Assembly (NCBI GenBank): GCA_028713535.1
Contig: JAQTOC010000004.1
Location: 1-62,417, forward strand
Direction: 5' to 3'
DNA from: Candidatus Nanoarchaeia archaeon
Lineage (GTDB): Archaea > Nanobdellota > Nanobdellia > SCGC-AAA011-G17 > JACPNG01
DNA length: 62,417 nucleotides
The notes beneath the pieces were generated by a model that was not told where the DNA came from, searched no databases, and saw only the letters and a list, made by a program, of their open reading frames with translations. Position 1 is the first letter of the stretch. The number at the start of each line of letters is the position of its first letter. A program made the position numbers and the translations under genes. Positions 8,713 through 55,700 of this stretch are shown here, piece after piece.

Positions 8713-9285
8713 TTAACGCTTCTTTCTCACTATAATCAGCGCAGCAGTGATGCTGCCTAACAATCCAAATACCAAATCCAAGGCATTGTTTAAATAATCT
8801 CCAACCTGATTCTTGGCTCCAAGCCACACAGAAGGGACTAATTCCAAAATTTCATAAAATCCTGCAACTCCCAGCGAGAGAGTTATTAAATATAAAAACC
8901 ACGTAGATTTTATTGTAGTCTTTTTTAAATGTGGCCTTATTAGATGGTTAATCATAAAAGTTACTGTGAATATCCCAAGAAAATGAACTGGGTTGTCATA
9001 CTTTAAAACTCCGGGGATAATCCAAAAATCATACAGCCTAACATTCCCGACATCCACATGCCCTCCCAAGATATGCAATGTCAATAAAACAGTCAATCCA
9101 AACATTGACCAAACAGGAAAATTAAATTTTTTATAAAAAATAACAAAAAACAAAATGACAAACAGCATCAGCGCAGTGTAATACAGGAATTCATAGTTTC
9201 CTCTCAATACAAAAAAGATTGTAAACAAACTCATAAATAAAAGAGAATAAATCAGCATCAATCTTAATGCAGTCTTTTTCTCCAT
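8713..9285 (-). CDS. Polytopic membrane protein (tandem paralog A)
   Basis: 190 aa with about 5 TM helices. Clearly homologous to 9346..9921 (LRGNYEFLYYTALM / AKNYEFLFSTALM; NALDLVFGLLGSI / NALDLLFGLLGSI). Confidence 0.7.
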   Translation of the reverse strand: MEKKTALRLMLIYSLLFMSLFTIFFVLRGNYEFLYYTALMLFVILFFVIFYKKFNFPVWSMFGLTVLLTLHILGGHVDVGNVRLYDFWIIPGVLKYDNPVHFLGIFTVTFMINHLIRPHLKKTTIKSTWFLYLITLSLGVAGFYEILELVPSVWLGAKNQVGDYLNNALDLVFGLLGSITAALIIVRKKR

Positions 9286-9345
9286 AAATTTTTTAATTAT
9301 AATAAAAATATAAATCTTTCTAAATAATCGTGTTACAAAAATAAA

Positions 9346-9921
9346 CTATACTTTGTTTTTCTTTCTGAGTATCAGCCAGCTGGCAAAAATGCTTCCCAGC
9401 AACCCAAACAATAAATCCAAAGCATTATTCCAATAATCCCCGACGCCAGTGTCATTGAAAATGATCTTGGCAAACATTTCTAAAACTTCATGGAAAGCAG
9501 ATATCCCAAGGGGAACAAAAACCAAAAAAATAAACAAGATAAATCTCCCAGATTCCTTGCTCATGTAAATATCCAAAAAATGCTTGACTAAGAACGTAAC
9601 AACAAACAATCCAAAGAAGTGAACAACAAAATCATATTTTATGATCCCGTCCAAAATCCAGTAGTCATACAATCTGCCTCCGTTAATGTACACATAGCCT
9701 CCAAGGATGTGCGCCATAAACAAAACCATAAATCCAGCCAATAATAAAACAGAAAATCTAAACTTTTTATAAAGAAGTACAAAAAAAATAATAATTCCTA
9801 TCATCAAGGCAGTGGAAAATAAAAATTCATAATTCTTGGCTATGACAAAAACAACTGTAGAAAAAACCATAAATAAAATAGAAATAAATAATATCAGTTT
9901 TAATGCAAGATTCTTATTCAT
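9346..9921 (-). CDS. Polytopic membrane protein (tandem paralog B)
   Basis: See 8713..9285. Same length, topology and conserved motifs. Confidence 0.7.
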   Translation of the reverse strand: MNKNLALKLILFISILFMVFSTVVFVIAKNYEFLFSTALMIGIIIFFVLLYKKFRFSVLLLAGFMVLFMAHILGGYVYINGGRLYDYWILDGIIKYDFVVHFFGLFVVTFLVKHFLDIYMSKESGRFILFIFLVFVPLGISAFHEVLEMFAKIIFNDTGVGDYWNNALDLLFGLLGSIFASWLILRKKNKV

Positions 9922-13384: not shown

Positions 13385-13975
13385 TTAAAACAACCCCCCT
13401 ATGAATTGAACCAAACTTACAAACCATATTTTTAACCACCCAAACAAAGGTATTCTTAAAACTGCCTTTCCAACAATTTGGCTACTATTTATTTCTTTCG
13501 GATCATTAATCTGGTTATTATCCCCTTTAGTTATTAATGGATCTGTATGGACAACCCTGTGTATTATCGGATAATAAACACTTGACGTCTGATAAACAAT
13601 TGTGTCCCCTATATTAACTTTTTTTGCCTTGAAAATAACCATTATATCTCCCTTGTTAAATCCGTTCTTGAATTTAAAATCTGAAAAATATTCTTTGGTA
13701 ATTCCTTTTTCAGTATACCATTCCTTGTTAGCTTCCCACCAGGCATCAAACCCAAGATGATTCCATGAACAAGTGCCTTTTAATTCACTGTGCTCCATGC
13801 TGCATGAAACTACAGCAACAACCGGCAGATTAGTGCCAAAAATCAAGCCCAATCCTGGATAAATAATAAACTTAACAAGTATGAACGCAACAACTAAATT
13901 AGCTAACCAGCTCCATATAGAATTATCCTTCCAAAGAAAGTGCCATACTCTTTTAAGAGTTTGTTTTAACTCCAT
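13385..13975 (-). CDS. Signal peptidase I, archaeal/Sec11 type (S26)
   Basis: N-terminal TM anchor, catalytic-Ser box SCSMEH, IHRVV, and the GDNN..D box (ITKGDNNQINDP). Confidence 0.75.
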   Translation of the reverse strand: MELKQTLKRVWHFLWKDNSIWSWLANLVVAFILVKFIIYPGLGLIFGTNLPVVAVVSCSMEHSELKGTCSWNHLGFDAWWEANKEWYTEKGITKEYFSDFKFKNGFNKGDIMVIFKAKKVNIGDTIVYQTSSVYYPIIHRVVHTDPLITKGDNNQINDPKEINSSQIVGKAVLRIPLFGWLKIWFVSLVQFIGGLF

Positions 13976-14050
13976 TTGAACCTTGGTGTTGTATCTAAAA
14001 ACTTAAAAAGGTTTCTATCAATACATATATATACCCTATAAACAAAAAAC

Positions 14051-14175
14051 AAGGTGCCGGGAAGCATTTCCACTTGAGATTCCCTTTGTATTGGACAACC
14101 GACATGGAGCTCCCTAAAGAGTTATCTCCGGTAGTCTTATTCAACTGTAGTGTTATGCCCCTCCGGATGCACCTT
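14051..14175 (-). ncRNA. Unassigned ~125-nt structured RNA candidate
   Basis: A terminal 7-bp helix (14051-14057 / 14169-14175) closes internal hairpins. Read on the minus strand it is followed immediately by GUUUUUUGUUU (14041-14050). No ORF. G+C visibly above the flanks. Confidence 0.4.
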
Positions 14176-14230
14176 GTCTCTTCTTATAAATCTAAATAAA
14201 AATAGAAAAAATAAAAGAAAATTATAAAAT

Positions 14231-15300
14231 AAGGTGAGGTTGTCCTTGTTGCAAACATATCTGAAAATCTGGATGGACAACCCCACACTCTTGTTGCGTC
14301 TACTAGTCCGTCCCCGTCTTTCTCAAGGGGTTTCATAGATTAGTAAAAGAAAATCGTATGTTCTTATGACGCAGATACTACCAACCCCGTCGTATCGGGG
14401 GTGCCACGACATCCTGAACTGATTATTTGCCAGTAGTCGTGAAACATAGAAAGCTGGTGGTTGTCCACTCTGTCATTCGGGCTGACAGGAAGCGACAACA
14501 CCATAGACGAGAATAGAGCATTCATAACAATGCCCTCCGTTTGGTGTGTAATTTCCACAGATCAAATTACACTGACATTGGAAATTACACACAGTCGATT
14601 TTAGGGTTTGTGTCGGTGCATGGTTTGCCCTAATCTTGCTCTTCCTCCATTAAGGAAAAAAGTTTACAATAAAAAAGGCGGGGCTGACCTTTATAAAAGT
14701 CAAAAGACAAGAGGGGTAACCTCTTTCACCCCGCCATAGTCCAATAACAACTGGGAGCCTCAGGATATAATTATATTTTTATCTCGGCGGTGTTTGTGTA
14801 TAAGGAGGTAATACACTTATTGAGAGACTCCCAGAACCAAATACGATTAAAAAATCCTTGCAGGTCAGGTTCGAAACCAATAGATGATTGTGAAAAAGAT
14901 TATACGAAACCCGACACCTCCTCTCTTAGATGACCGTTTATCGAGAGGTGTCCTAAACCTTTAAACGACTGCAAGGAATTGTGTTAATCAACAATCAAAA
15001 TTTTTGGGAGTGAAAAAGACCTTTTCGAGATTTACGTCCAGAAGAAACTTCGAGACGTAGGATGCAACAGTTCAACTCAAAGCAAAGTAAATTCTTCTGG
15101 ACACGGTGGGGTCACAACTCCTTGGAGTTGTAGTTTGAACATAGAACCAATAGGCACGAAAACAACGAGTTATCCTGAATATCATCGAGGTCTTTGCTCT
15201 GCGCAGATATGCAGATAACGAAATCATTGAAGCTATCCATTGCAGTATTTTTTTGATTATACTCATATGCATGCTCCTACTAGGTCCAATCACTCCCAAA
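14231..15300 (-). ncRNA. Unassigned large (~1 kb) highly structured RNA candidate
   Basis: ORF-free and G+C-enriched. Many perfect local and long-range helices (see the first finding). The helix mismatches are A/C on the plus strand, which become G-U on the minus strand. Exact ends unknown. Confidence 0.45.
14544..14592. repeat. 14-bp perfect inverted repeat whose loop carries a second copy of part of the 3' arm
   Basis: 14544-14557 pairs perfectly with 14579-14592. AAATTACAC occurs in the loop (14564-14572) and again in the 3' arm (14582-14590). Confidence 0.8.
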
Positions 15301-15459
15301 CTTTATTCTAAAATTAGGTTTTCCATCTCTTTCCGCTTTAAGCAGAAAAAAGATAACAGAAAACACTAATATAGATTCCAGTCCAAAGACGAAAATTAAG
15401 CCCAAAGGCTCAATAATTTTTAATAATTAATAAATATGAAAAATCCCTATTTATAAATT

Positions 15460-16029
15460 TTATTCTTCAACAATAGTCTTGTCAGGCATTTCTTTAAAAA
15501 CTTGTGCCTGGAAAGTATAAACCTCGCATCCTTTTTTCTTCCAGTTATCCTCTAACAATCCAGCTTTCAAGCAGGTTTCTCTTAAAAATTCTTCAGTATC
15601 CCATCTATGCTCTTTAGCTACCTGCGGCAATAATAATCCAGAAAATCCTCTGCATCCAACAATTAACCCGTCTCTTCCTATTTTTATTTTTTCAGAATAT
15701 TTCTCAGGTTTTACCTCAAGTAATTCAGGAACAGTCAAAACAGAAATCTCAATCGTTAAATCTTTTAATTCTTTTTCATTCAAAGTTTTAAATCTTGAAT
15801 CATTAAATGCTGCCTCTCTTGCCATGCCAATAACAGCCTTTCCCAGATTTTCATAAGGCAAAACCAATCCGATGCATCCTTTCAGGTTTCCTTTAATATA
15901 AAGTGTAACAAAAACTCCTTTTTTTTCCTTGAACAAGTTAGTGTCAAGTTCTTTTCCTTTAAACCAGAATTCAATAGACTTTCTTGCAATGTCAATTAAT
16001 TGTTTTCCTTGTTCTAAGGTATATCTCAT
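15460..16029 (-). CDS. AMMECR1 domain protein
   Basis: 189 aa. GVFVTLYIKGNLKGCIG and GLLLPQV motifs are characteristic of AMMECR1. Confidence 0.85.
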   Translation of the reverse strand: MRYTLEQGKQLIDIARKSIEFWFKGKELDTNLFKEKKGVFVTLYIKGNLKGCIGLVLPYENLGKAVIGMAREAAFNDSRFKTLNEKELKDLTIEISVLTVPELLEVKPEKYSEKIKIGRDGLIVGCRGFSGLLLPQVAKEHRWDTEEFLRETCLKAGLLEDNWKKKGCEVYTFQAQVFKEMPDKTIVEE

Positions 16030-16295: not shown

Positions 16296-16386
16296 AACTC
16301 AATTTTCATAAACAACTGTTTTTAAATGTTTCTATAATACATATACATACAGTATCAAGAAAAGATAGTAATATACGAGTCTAAGT

Positions 16387-27752: not shown

Positions 27753-27826
27753 GGGGCTGTAGTTCAACCTGGGAGAACACCAGACTGAAGCTCTGGACGT
27801 TGGGGGTTCAAATCCCCCCGGCCCCA
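27753..27826 (+). tRNA. tRNA-Phe (anticodon GAA)
   Basis: Hand-folded cloverleaf. Acceptor GGGGCUG/CGGCCCC, D arm GUUC..GAAC, anticodon arm CCAGA-CUGAAGC-UCUGG, T arm GGGGG-UUCAAAU-CCCCC, discriminator A. No encoded CCA. Confidence 0.9.
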
Positions 27827-29078: not shown

Positions 29079-29149
29079 ACTTCCTTTTTCTTTCCTTGTT
29101 TTGGTAATAGAAACCTTTTTAAATCAATTATTTTCTATCTTGCTATAAA

Positions 29150-54770: not shown

Positions 54771-54840
54771 ACCTACCTTAGGTAAATCCACATTTATATA
54801 AATTTAGGTTTTATCAGATAGATACATCCATATACTATAT

Positions 54841-54884
54841 TAATTAAAAAGAATGCCCCTCCTTCACAAGAAGGAAAGGGCATT
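54841..54884 (-). terminator. Intrinsic-type terminator on the minus strand
   Basis: AATGCCC..CCTTC / GAAGG..GGGCATT hairpin (54852-54884) followed on the minus strand by CUUUUUAAUU (54841-54851). Confidence 0.5.
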
Positions 54885-54897
54885 GCAAATCGAAAAC

Positions 54898-55146
54898 TTA
54901 ACTCCCGCCGCAACCGTGCCGCATTTTATCCCATCCATTCGGACCTTCATTCATCCCATGGATAAGAATATCTGCCTCAAGCATATCATGAAGCCCTGGG
55001 CTCAATACTAGCGGAGTTACAAACTTCTTCAAAAAAAACGGCAAGATCCTCAAGAAACGTTCCAACACTTTACACCTCTCAGGTTTATTCACTTTCTCCT
55101 CCAGAAAAAAATCCGGAAAGGAGAATACAACTAGAAACAACAACAT
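54898..55146 (-). CDS. Doubtful small ORF (82 aa from the first ATG)
   Basis: The track ORF starts at TTG 55230; the first ATG is at 55146. One hydrophobic segment, no recognisable motif, no Shine-Dalgarno. The G+C-rich 3' part contains long hairpins, so it may be non-coding. Confidence 0.25.
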   Translation of the reverse strand: MLLFLVVFSFPDFFLEEKVNKPERCKVLERFLRILPFFLKKFVTPLVLSPGLHDMLEADILIHGMNEGPNGWDKMRHGCGGS

Positions 55147-55230
55147 ACAAAGTAGATTTACAAAGTAAGAGTTTACTCCATTCTTCTTGTTTAAATAATT
55201 AACTATTATACATGTACATATAAAAAACAA

Positions 55231-55700
55231 AATAAAAAACCTGCATTTTATTATAAAAAAGCAGGTGTGCTATTGTTTATAGCTTTAGGAAGCTAAGAGA
55301 CGGAAGAGGGGGGACAATATCCGTACAATACACACACCTGCCGCCGGAGCATTCTGTAGAGGATAATAATAAATAAACGTCCGGCATTGTTTGGGGGGAC
55401 GTAGCCAAAAAAGAGAAGGAGTAAAATTGCGCCTGGTACCCATAGGTTGTATATTAATCTTGAATACTCGGGGTACCAGGGTTAAGCATACTGATAATCT
55501 CGAGCAGGTTTAAACGACGCCCAGAAGAAATCATCTAACCTTAATATCCTTGGACCCTGCCTTGGGGGTAATCTTGACTAAAAAGTAGGATGCCTCACCC
55601 CACCAAATCTAAACCAAAAATAAAAGGGACTAGATAATTCTGGCTCTTCCGGGTTTTCCTAACTCTCCCTGATTAAGAGAGAGAAAAGAAATAAAAGAAC
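55231..55700 (-). ncRNA. Unassigned structured RNA (weak RNase P RNA-like motifs)
   Basis: ORF-free and G+C-enriched. Helices 55261-55269/55333-55341 (enclosing 55271-55276/55325-55330 and two hairpins) and 55432-55441/55471-55480. On the minus strand: AGGAAAACCCGG (55649-55660) after a hairpin, and ACAGAAUGCUCCGG (55344-55357) about 300 nt downstream. Ends with hairpins followed by U-tracts (55231-55260). Confidence 0.35.

Follow-up and report, generated by a model that had tools for sequence, protein, structure and literature searches.

OLE, GOLLD and ROOL are bacterial RNAs of hundreds to more than 1,000 nt that are ORF-free, enriched in G+C relative to AT-rich intergenic DNA and encoded by stand-alone genes, and they have multi-domain predicted folds, compensated helices and strongly conserved nucleotide cores that recur in many species (PMC12286853, PMC9723947). 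A non-coding gap between the AMMECR1 gene and the signal peptidase operon of a Candidatus Nanoarchaeia archaeon (positions 13976–15459 of the window, by which we mean the whole 62,417-nt stretch of DNA that was analysed) resembles them in length, absence of ORFs, base composition, predicted domain structure, helix compensation and stand-alone arrangement. It differs from them in being archaeal, in having almost no conserved primary sequence, in its occurrence in three genomes at lengths of 949–1484 nt, in the gain and loss of modules and in matching no Rfam family. The conserved core, shared architecture and occurrence in many species that together define an ornate class of the OLE, GOLLD or ROOL kind were not found for the gap, and our search of the literature found no report of a large structured RNA in DPANN archaea other than the universal ones.

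Helices that are kept while their sequence is not are familiar from rRNA spacer processing stems, telomerase RNA and modules of eukaryotic lncRNAs. With these fast-evolving RNAs the gap shares compensated long-range closing stems, variable loops and insertions, and alignment at short islands only. Unlike the rRNA spacer stems and their counterparts, the stems of the gap flank no rRNA or other mature product, and neither an associated protein nor a processing motif was identified. We favour, at slightly better than even confidence, the reading of the gap as a non-coding transcription unit, modular, fast-evolving and self-contained, that lies on the minus strand.

An ORF-free gap in three genomes

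The longest ORF between position 13976 and position 15459 is 75 aa, as a first-pass annotation made from the sequence alone had claimed, and each frame holds 15–35 stops of all three types, which rules out recoding. A six-frame Pfam search of the gap gave one marginal match only (Carla_C4, E 6e-4, under the gathering score), which we judged to be due to chance, and tblastx among the gaps of the three genomes revealed no coding-like signal. We also rejected a small conserved protein, as a 41-aa TM-like ORF at 15280–15405 is disrupted by non-triplet indels in a related genome (L007). The G+C content is 0.385 overall and 0.40–0.447 in the interior, compared with 0.30–0.39 in the coding flanks, a GC3 of 0.33 and 0.10–0.27 in ordinary short spacers. 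The annotation had called the stretch richer in G+C than its flanks; this is true, but the excess is modest relative to coding DNA and large relative to normal intergenic DNA. The rest of the window is densely coding, with spacers of 41–310 nt. Two other apparent gaps were discarded: 1–2954 is a long gene running past the window edge, and 61517–62416 is TBP. Direct repeats in the gap are two-copy only, 9–19 nt long and irregularly spaced, which is not the pattern of a CRISPR or tandem array, and a self-comparison found nothing in the remainder of the 62-kb window that resembles the gap.

At gathering thresholds, the sole match of Rfam 15 in the whole window was a tRNA (27753–27826). At E ≤ 10 the best matches within the gap scored 12–18 bits against thresholds of 50–70, and the same was true of the corresponding gaps of the two relatives described below, searched at E ≤ 5. 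The Rfam 15 families without a match include RNase P, SRP, group I/II introns, OLE, GOLLD, ROOL, HEARO and CRISPR repeats; the annotation, which had proposed such a search, had called its candidate RNA one of unknown class. It had also reported no reverse transcriptase (RT), TnpB or recombinase gene nearby, and we found none within ~10 kb in the annotated loci of the relatives. The missing RT domain over that distance, together with the lack of similarity to the rest of the window, provides no sign of the template of a diversity-generating retroelement.

Two related Nanoarchaeia MAGs, L007 and L009, with AMMECR1 proteins 78–81% identical, carry an ORF-free and equally structured gap in the same place, of 1305 and 949 nt, respectively, against 1484 nt in the window. 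The next-nearest lineage (L011/L012) lacks the gap and has a 71-nt spacer; in L005 and L011 the same two genes lie 46–71 nt apart. The three genomes with the gap (GCA_028714095.1, GCA_028714375.1 and that of the window) are MAGs that all trace to a single sample; they have diverged by ~20–30% at the protein level, and the retention of 0.95–1.5 kb in three lineages amid otherwise dense coding argues for function. The flanking genes are 70–82% identical in DNA sequence, whereas the gap interior is unalignable save for islands of 9–21 nt in collinear order. Between close relatives, a housekeeping RNA is expected to conserve its primary sequence at least as well as the neighbouring protein genes do, and we therefore rejected a divergent RNase P RNA or SRP RNA.

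Predicted base pairing along the minus strand

The annotation had described the stretch as helix-dense, and a repeat finder or direct reading recovered the main pairings that it listed: 14544–14557/14579–14592 (14 bp, perfect), 15036–15046/15092–15102 (11 bp, perfect), 14234–14245/14275–14286 (12 nt, with one A/C on the plus strand), 14852–14863/14969–14980, 14751–14761/14824–14834, 14677–14683/14729–14735 and 15114–15120/15125–15131. An additional long-range pair, 15003–15013/15290–15300, is a perfect 11 bp. Relative to dinucleotide shuffles, a comparison that the annotation had suggested, the MFE of the whole gap had a z-score of −9.55 on the minus strand and −6.30 on the plus strand. Block shuffles of 50 nt, which keep local composition, gave −5.68 and rule out a compositional artefact, and the gap is far more structured than length-matched coding controls (−1.15 to +1.52 and −1.1 to −2.2). 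Across all three genomes the sense-strand z-scores of the whole gap ranged from −5.5 to −9.6, or from −5.7 to −7.6 with local-composition shuffles. The gap thus combines the generic features of a structured non-coding RNA gene, namely no coding capacity and structure beyond that of shuffled sequence.

A/C mismatches on the plus strand had been taken to argue for a minus-strand transcript. The window agrees: read as minus strand, its nine stems of at least 11 bp contain 9 internal G·U and no A·C; L007 does not, with G·U and A·C at 5 versus 4, no strand bias, and the lower z-score on the antisense strand. T-runs on the sense strand are 2.6–3.7 times denser than in genes (2.6 times denser than in coding sense strands for runs of 5 or more) and stand directly after several stem-closed modules; internal T-runs lie at 14854, 14676 and 14211. 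A sigma-70/terminator scan, narrowly defined, detected no significant enrichment.

Reading along the minus strand, a TATA-like box (TTTATAAA, 15450–15457) lies 3 nt past the stop codon of AMMECR1 and is a candidate promoter of the non-coding unit. Boxes of this kind, one of them TTTATTAA, occur 3–16 nt past the upstream stop in six of six gaps (two loci in each of three genomes). Within 30 nt past the stop they are found for only 3 of 54 window genes, two of which are the genes upstream of the two gaps. In L004 and L002 a position homologous to that of the box is taken by the promoter of a ~660-aa gene; we infer that the box acts as a promoter. A scan for terminator-like sites identified a short hairpin at 15395–15414, whose core is GAGCC..GGCUU and whose tail is T-rich; L007 retains the hairpin as AAGCC..GGCUU, with a G·U replaced by A-U. 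The long, imperfect 5' hairpin at 15296–15386, ~90 nt and rich in G·U on the minus strand, is 81–87% identical between the window and L007, and all 32 of its pairs are paired in both genomes; 4 of them have changed in both partners and 2 in one, and none is broken. Slid controls were 40–62% paired, with 0–1 double changes, and the covariance model of this hairpin (R1) recovered the window and L007 copies only.

The next two domains are closed by long-range helices. Helix B (15300–15290/15013–15003, 11 bp, perfect) bounds a domain at 15003–15300 that holds an inner 11-bp helix (15102–15092/15046–15036) and a hairpin (15131–15114). L007 has a collinear helix of partly different sequence (TGGACTGT/ACAGTCCA), and a shuffle test gave 0 of 5,000 for the window and 141 of 5,000 for L007; helices B and D are both collinear in the two genomes (p = 0.0002–0.03). 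A helix at gap positions 160–170, with its L007 partner at ~884–897, was dropped as non-collinear. Helix C (14977–14969, TCCTTGCAG, paired with 14863–14855, CTGCAAGGA) closes a domain at 14849–14977 that is followed by T6 and includes an island (14870–14850) matching L007 at 21 of 21 nt inside unalignable DNA. The arms of helix C are exact islands in L007, again amid unalignable DNA, and make a 13-bp perfect helix around a loop of 234 nt in L007 compared with 105 nt in the window. GCCTTGC-TTCG-GCAAGGC in L009 may, tentatively, be a collapsed version of this helix.

Beyond helix C the structures are largely those of the window. A stem-closed module at 14751–14834, whose 11-nt arms contain one G·U and enclose a GTGTAT..ATACAC hairpin, has no counterpart that we could find in L007. 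Sequence reading and the T-run map identified a window-specific module at 14671–14735, closed by GGCGGGG/CCCCGCC, with two inner hairpins, inner terminator-like sites and T6 directly after it. A perfect 14-bp hairpin with a 21-nt loop at 14544–14592, where the surrounding 150 nt have a z-score of −3.7, is absent from L007. Logan contigs of the sample break at 14604–14642. The multi-hairpin segment at 14290–14540 has only weak homology to L007, to which nhmmer aligned it at low posterior probability, and its predicted hairpins show no obvious correspondence between genomes; no conserved fold was found in the middle ~550 nt of the gap. Conservation resumes with a hairpin at 14234–14286 (GGGGUUGUCC..GGACAACCUC; z-score of −3.5 in the window and −2.8 in L007), which L007 keeps with a G·U replaced by G-C, and which belongs to a cluster of GGTTGTCCA motifs and is followed by an AT-rich spacer (14183–14233).

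The locus has a terminator-like end in the 3' unit (14044–14182; z-score of −4.0), a predicted three-way-junction RNA of ~140 nt with a 14-bp closing stem (14182–14169/14057–14044) and a final U6. A covariance model built from this single sequence had the collinear L007 copy as its sole other match in 191 kb. Over 145 nt of the window and L007, 92.5% of 48 pairs are paired and 22 of 48 have changed on both sides while being kept, compared with 3–6 double changes in slid controls and 0 of 500 shuffles reaching the observed count; like every covariation count here, this one compares two sequences and is formally weak, and the alignment was fitted to the model structure. The closing stems read ACAAGGUGC/GCACCUUGU in the window and CGCCCCCGU/ACGGGGGCG in L007, and compensation is spread over several separate helices, inner ones included. 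Such compensatory change, seen between two sequences, is consistent with the earlier suggestion that the structure is under selection. Searches with covariance models of the two end units, the 5' hairpin and the 3' unit, were negative in L009, in outgroups and at the second locus described below. L009 has almost no sequence in common with the other two gaps, lacks both modelled units and has a plain 12-bp hairpin with T6 aligned to the position of the 3' unit; a hairpin followed by a T-run closes six of six gaps at the two loci. The downstream boundary, outside the RNA, is the promoter of the signal peptidase operon (GTATATATATGTATTGATAGAAACCTTTTTAAG, 14002–14034), which is conserved to 88% in both L007 and L009. 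An element resembling it stands upstream of RpoL and other genes, and the promoter core (AAACCTTTTTA) is found in outgroups L011 and L002 too.

A candidate transcription unit and its alternatives

Transcription of the proposed unit would start near 15425, driven by the TATA-like box right after the AMMECR1 stop codon, and would run on the strand of the flanking genes. The RNA would be a string of independently closed stem domains, in the order 5' hairpin, B, C, several window-specific modules, the conserved hairpin and the 140-nt 3' unit, and would finish, a short way before the signal peptidase promoter, in a long stem and U-run. Selection would target pairing and a few short islands and leave most primary sequence free, so that stems are compensated while loops gain and lose structured inserts. 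What the data show is the missing coding capacity, the excess of structure in three genomes, collinear homology and compensated helices between the window and L007, the G·U strand bias of the window and the shared boundary architecture. Transcription of the gap and its two ends are inferred, from a TATA-like box at the start and a hairpin with a U-run at the finish, and any function would likewise be conjecture. The T-run density speaks against this reading, as it would hinder a long transcript. The annotation had proposed a large structured RNA. The data do not sustain the idea of one conserved RNA of ~1.4 kb belonging to a widespread class: the interior is unalignable, lengths vary between the three genomes, whole modules are missing in L007, no core is conserved, T-runs are dense and the element is known from three MAGs of one sample only. 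The internal U-runs probably give rise to several RNAs, nested or separate, in place of a single clean 1.4-kb species. Our best guess is that a stable structured RNA would serve as a scaffold, either binding protein or acting as a double strand, and that its terminal hairpins would in addition insulate the two neighbouring operons.

An unlikely alternative is that the gap is non-functional hairpin-rich DNA, marking the slot of a lost gene or an insertion hotspot, with inverted repeats made by replication template switching, which is documented to create and maintain hairpins and, with no selection at work, can yield perfect hairpins and what looks like compensation (PMC8794818). The junction is labile, holding a ~660-aa surface-protein gene in L002–L004 and nothing in L005 and L011. 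Its sequence turnover is extreme, with two-fold length differences between anchors (an inter-anchor segment of 324 nt in the window versus 128 nt in L007); many stems are perfect, L007 shows no strand bias and similar gaps exist at a second locus. However, such DNA would have had to persist at 0.95–1.5 kb in three compact genomes through ~20–30% protein divergence, with a G+C content above GC3 and far above that of ordinary spacers. It would also have to account for a conserved TATA box and terminator, the 21-nt island, the compensated changes that the 3' unit shows in several distinct helices and the 9-to-0 excess of G·U in the window.

We consider it rather improbable that the gap is a cis-acting boundary only, that is, a long structured 3' UTR or terminator-insulator separating the RpoL–AMMECR1 operon from the signal peptidase–TFS–PCNA operon, with end terminators as its best-conserved structures and no trans-acting RNA. 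Terminator stems evolve by compensation. The clearest compensation in the gap sits in the two end units, and likenesses to intrinsic terminators are found in the stem of the 3' unit (A-rich 5' flank, stem and U6, like the plain terminator hairpin of L009 at that position), the hairpin at 15414–15395 and the 12-bp L009 hairpin with its T6; T-runs follow several modules, and the L007 spacer 9258–9734 also finishes in a hairpin and T-run. Unlike intrinsic terminators, the 3' units of the window and L007 hold a conserved three-way-junction insert of 111–125 nt in the 'loop', and ~1.2 kb of further structured sequence is left unexplained. The conserved starting TATA box and internal helices B and C would be superfluous for termination, and boundaries elsewhere take far less space, both at other operon boundaries in the window (41–310 nt) and between the same two genes in L005 and L011 (46–71 nt).

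It is very improbable that the gap is a graveyard in which miniature mobile elements, palindromic units of the MITE or PATE kind, nested at a hotspot. Discrete modules bounded by inverted repeats, their varying presence between genomes and inserts within the loops of conserved stems all recall such elements, but no module recurred in ~100 kb sampled from three genomes, none had a second copy in 62 kb plus two 20-kb and two 11-kb loci, and no nearby transposase gene was found. Phage, plasmid, viral and metagenome collections gave nothing above chance: the first three produced a single AT-rich match, and a metagenome scan with a 20-nt island produced one, in a bacterial coding sequence of 56% G+C. 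Moreover, the 3' unit has a conserved interior and variable, compensated terminal stems, the opposite of terminal inverted repeats.

Descent by decay from the ~660-aa surface-protein gene, or from another gene, scarcely merits credence. The annotation had noted that an intact protein gene here in related genomes would point to a decayed pseudogene; such a gene does occupy the slot in the more distant L002–L004, and slot and promoter are positionally homologous to those of L004 and L002, but no sequence relic was found. A profile HMM of three orthologs reached a best E of 0.75, with negative bits, across the three gaps, and tblastn a best E of 0.06 on the wrong strand, whereas a control copy with 30% substitutions per site and 15 indels was still detected at E ≤ 1e-8. 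In addition to the lack of a coding-like tblastx signal, coding DNA of the window has z-scores near 0 compared with −6 to −9 for the gap, and its structure, G+C content, TATA box and terminator are unlike the outcome of neutral decay.

An element acting as DNA, such as a replication origin with an AT-rich unwinding stretch (14183–14233) and inverted GGTTGTCCA protein-binding repeats, is just as remote. Archaeal origins (ORB repeats and an AT-rich element) likewise are long and intergenic, carry inverted motif copies to either side of an AT-rich stretch and diverge rapidly except at the motifs, and here GGTTGTCCA occurs three times exactly and once with one mismatch within ~400 nt of the gap (five exact copies in the 62-kb window; two copies conserved in L007), next to a very AT-rich spacer and with PCNA four genes downstream. 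Against this, no Orc1/Cdc6 (or whiP) gene was found within ~10 kb, cumulative skew is monotonic across the site without an inflection, with same-strand genes on both sides, G+C is raised rather than lowered, GGTTGTCCA is absent from L009, a similar locus lies 40 kb away, and fully compensated rather than sequence-conserved stems, together with the G·U asymmetry, indicate RNA pairing and not protein-binding sites.

A second locus and what the gaps may mean

The second similar locus, at 54792–55777, lies downstream of RFC and ~40 kb from the first. Together with the candidate transcription unit described above, it raises the prospect, which we regard as possible but on balance doubtful, of an unrecorded class of long, modular, fast-evolving structured RNAs at two or more syntenic loci, each with a TATA box and a hairpin terminator and with helices and islands under selection, one of them in the slot of a surface-protein gene.

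The genomes of DPANN archaea are among the most compact known, and a kilobase of kept non-coding DNA calls for explanation. If the loci are silent, they would be a clear example of hairpin-rich, fast-turnover DNA that mimics covariation, and a caution for RNA discovery pipelines relying on G+C, z-scores and few sequences. If they are expressed, even minimal, symbiont-type archaea would maintain long RNAs in which structure rather than sequence is selected. Such RNAs would escape homology-based annotation such as Rfam, and the gaps would offer a tractable case of stems that persist while their loops expand and collapse.

Coding capacity and folding of the gap

Between the signal peptidase gene (13385–13975) and AMMECR1 (15460–16029), both on the minus strand, the longest open reading frame is 75 aa, as the first-pass annotation had claimed. 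All six frames of this gap (13976–15459) carry 15–35 stop codons of all three kinds, so that it is neither a hidden gene nor a case of stop-codon recoding, and the sole Pfam match in the six frames was marginal, falling under its gathering score. The G+C enrichment reported alongside was likewise recovered: G+C is 0.385 overall and 0.40–0.447 in the interior, compared with 0.30–0.39 in the coding flanks, a GC3 of 0.33 and 0.10–0.27 in ordinary spacers of the window. A 41-aa frame at 15280–15405 (minus strand, TTG start) overlaps the 5′ hairpin of the gap and would encode a hydrophobic helix with a charged tail; it is probably not a gene because non-triplet indels disrupt it in L007, the syntenic locus of a related Nanoarchaeia MAG. 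Elsewhere, a minus-strand frame free of stop codons at 1–2954 indicates a long gene running past the window start rather than a gap, and 61832–62290 encodes a TATA-binding protein with EQFPGLV repeats.

The main helices proposed from the sequence by eye were recovered at the coordinates given for them, together with a further perfect long-range pair of 11 bp (15003–15013/15290–15300). Against dinucleotide shuffles, the minus strand of the gap folds with z = −9.55 and the plus strand with z = −6.30, whereas three length-matched coding controls gave −1.15 to +1.52. Confining the shuffling to 50-nt blocks, which removes the artefact of compositional patchiness, left the minus strand at z = −5.68 (two of the three coding controls: −1.1 and −2.2). 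In the nine window stems of at least 11 bp, the internal mismatches read on the minus strand as nine G·U and no A·C, which bears out the earlier strand argument for the window. The absence of a known class also held: Rfam 15 matched only a tRNA outside the gap across the window, and permissive Rfam searches returned chance-level matches only, both for the gap and for its homologues in two relatives. The window is matched at 100% identity by independent Logan contigs of the same sample, which have an end at 14643 and a start at 14603 and leave ~39 nt (14604–14642) within the gap unbridged; strain-level variation is one possible cause of the break, and a branching of the graph at the TTAGGG..CCCTAA hairpin is another.

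Sequence turnover and helix conservation

The sole close relatives, L007 and a second MAG locus, L009 (AMMECR1 identity 81% and 78%), have ORF-free gaps of 1305 and 949 nt that are equally structured (sense z of −5.5 and −8.5; block-shuffle z of −6.1 and −7.6). Flanking genes of the window and relatives align continuously at 70–82% DNA identity, and the gap interiors gave no blastn alignment between genomes. Anchors shared by the window and L007 run collinear, from the first ~160 nt of the gap (81% identity) through TCCTTGCAG, a 21-nt island, TATGAATGC, a hairpin GGGGTTGTCC..GGACAACC and parts of a 3′ unit to the peptidase promoter; the lengths of the intervening stretches vary by as much as two-fold. 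L009 has little in common with the window gap except the promoter. Within ~400 nt, the 9-mer GGTTGTCCA is present, in this form or as its complement, in three exact copies and one single-mismatch copy (14092–14100, 14238–14246, 14274–14282 and 14459–14467), with only five exact copies in the entire 62-kb window; two copies make up the conserved hairpin.

Where homology is traceable between the window and L007, helices survive; all counts that follow compare two sequences, and the helices were selected after inspection. In the 5′ hairpin (15386–15296), all 32 pairs are intact in both genomes: four carry changes in both partners and two in one partner, and no pair is broken; slid controls were 40–62% paired. 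For the 3′ unit (14182–14044), a single-sequence covariance model of the window copy retrieved the collinear L007 copy as its sole other match in 191 kb. In the resulting alignment, which was fitted to the structure, 22 of 48 pairs had changed on both sides yet remained paired and 92.5% of cells were paired, compared with three to six double-changed pairs in slid controls; none of 500 shuffles attained the observed values. The closing stem reads ACAAGGUGC/GCACCUUGU in the window and CGCCCCCGU/ACGGGGGCG in L007, with p of about 0.002–0.003 for each closing stem within collinear windows; L009 has a plain 12-bp hairpin followed by T6 at the aligned position. The long-range pair of 15300–15290 with 15013–15003 (helix B) lies at collinear positions with partly different sequence, enclosing a domain of 276 nt in the window and ~125 nt in L007. 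Both arms of helix C (14977–14969 with 14863–14855) are exact sequence islands, and the helix encloses 105 nt in the window and 234 nt in L007.

Boundaries and putative transcription units

Downstream of the RFC small-subunit gene is a second ORF-poor syntenic gap (window 54792–55777; L014:5943–7663 and L015:5937–6863 in relatives; 986, 1721 and 927 nt). It contains patches rich in G+C, folds with a block-shuffle z of −5.4 to −6.9, gives no Rfam match, aligns between genomes only at a common promoter element, and has the same boundaries, with a TATA box first and a hairpin and T-run last. Across both loci in three genomes each, all six gaps start with TTTATAAA (in one, the variant TTTATTAA) 3–16 nt past the upstream stop codon, and all six end in a strong hairpin with T5–7 followed by the promoter of the downstream gene. 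Such a box just past a stop codon occurs in only 3 of 54 window genes, and two of these three precede the two gaps; the usual promoter position in this genome is ~30 nt ahead of start codons. The initial box, its rarity and the terminal hairpin with T-run support the inference of transcription into the gap on the gene strand.

A promoter-like element of ~45 nt (TAGTATATAT.TGTAT..ATAGAAACCTTTTTAAG) precedes the signal peptidase gene, RpoL, a 209-aa gene and another gene (14007–14049, 16324–16363, 54822–54866 and 29105–29122). It is kept in L007 and L009, and the peptidase promoter of the outgroups L011 and L002 has the same core, AAACCTTTTTA. In this clade, the ends of transcription units commonly combine an A-rich flank with a stem that contains GC and with T5–7 (all six gap ends; L007:9640–9700); bacterial-style intrinsic terminator shapes at such ends are notable in an archaeon.

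Oligo-T tracts terminate archaeal RNA polymerase. T-runs of at least five occur at 8.1 per kb on the sense strand of the gap versus 3.1 per kb in genes, and those of at least six at 4.0 versus 1.1 per kb; four T6 runs sit immediately after stem-closed modules. L007 lacks a counterpart of modules such as the 14-bp hairpin, and no shared fold was recognisable in the middle ~550 nt of the gap between the two genomes. These observations argue against one conserved 1.4-kb RNA. Of the large structured RNA first proposed, the non-coding character, structure and kept pairing are supported and the single conserved molecule is not supported; the best description of the gap is a series of stem-closed domains that may give rise to several RNAs.

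Alternative origins and the nature of the locus

The main alternative is that template switching (PMC8794818) produced neutral DNA rich in hairpins. This accounts for the perfect stems and the sequence turnover but leaves several features unexplained: retention in compact genomes, a G+C that exceeds GC3, conservation of the TATA box and terminator, the island of 21 nt, compensation in several inner helices and the 9:0 G·U bias. A pure terminator or insulator is plausible for the two ends, but more than 1 kb is then not accounted for, other boundaries taking 41–310 nt.

Another alternative is the decay of a protein gene. The products of the flanking genes of this DPANN archaeon are RpoL, AMMECR1, an archaeal signal peptidase, TFS and PCNA, and the nearest database proteins come from 'Candidatus Nanoarchaeia' MAGs. 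The order RpoL–AMMECR1–signal peptidase–TFS...PCNA is widely kept, with a labile AMMECR1/peptidase junction: these two genes are 46–71 nt apart in the more distant L005, L011 and L012 (AMMECR1 identity 49–55%), and in L002, L003 and L004 (52–55%) the slot (L002:10580–17584, L003:10553–12517, L004:5484–7469) carries a conserved protein of ~660 aa that looks like a membrane-anchored surface protein (40–76% identity among its three copies), joined in L002 by two additional large paralogous genes. The junction is therefore a gain/loss hotspot. The first-pass annotation had held that an intact gene here in relatives would indicate a pseudogene, and the slot and promoter do match the ~660-aa gene of L004 and L002 in position. 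However, tblastn, tblastx and profile HMM searches found no relic in the gap, although an in-silico ortholog with 30% substitutions per site and 15 indels still scored E of 1e-8 or better, and z of −6 to −9 is unexpected of coding-derived DNA. Nearby, an MTS-type methyltransferase gene between an HTH regulator and RpoL is present in relatives (L007:8631–9257, L009:8015–8650, L011:5090–5725) and absent from the window genome (16296–16386); between the HTH regulator and RpoL, L007 also has a 477-nt structured spacer (z = −3.6) ending in a hairpin and T-run.

A replication origin would fit the GGTTGTCCA cluster adjoining an AT-rich stretch, but the evidence is mostly against it: there is no orc1/cdc6 gene within ~10 kb and no skew change at the site, G+C is raised, the motif is not conserved in L009 and the compensation is of RNA type. 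MITEs appear unlikely, since no module repeats within the ~100 kb sampled or matches phage, plasmid, viral or metagenome collections.

The locus is alike in kind to large structured ncRNAs. Unlike them, it has no conserved core, gains and loses modules, is narrowly distributed and has a sister locus (54792–55777). It belongs to no known RNA family. Together, our results identify the gap as a minus-strand non-coding locus that is specific to its clade, evolves fast and is under selection for structure; with moderate confidence, we read it as most probably a transcription unit for non-coding RNA.
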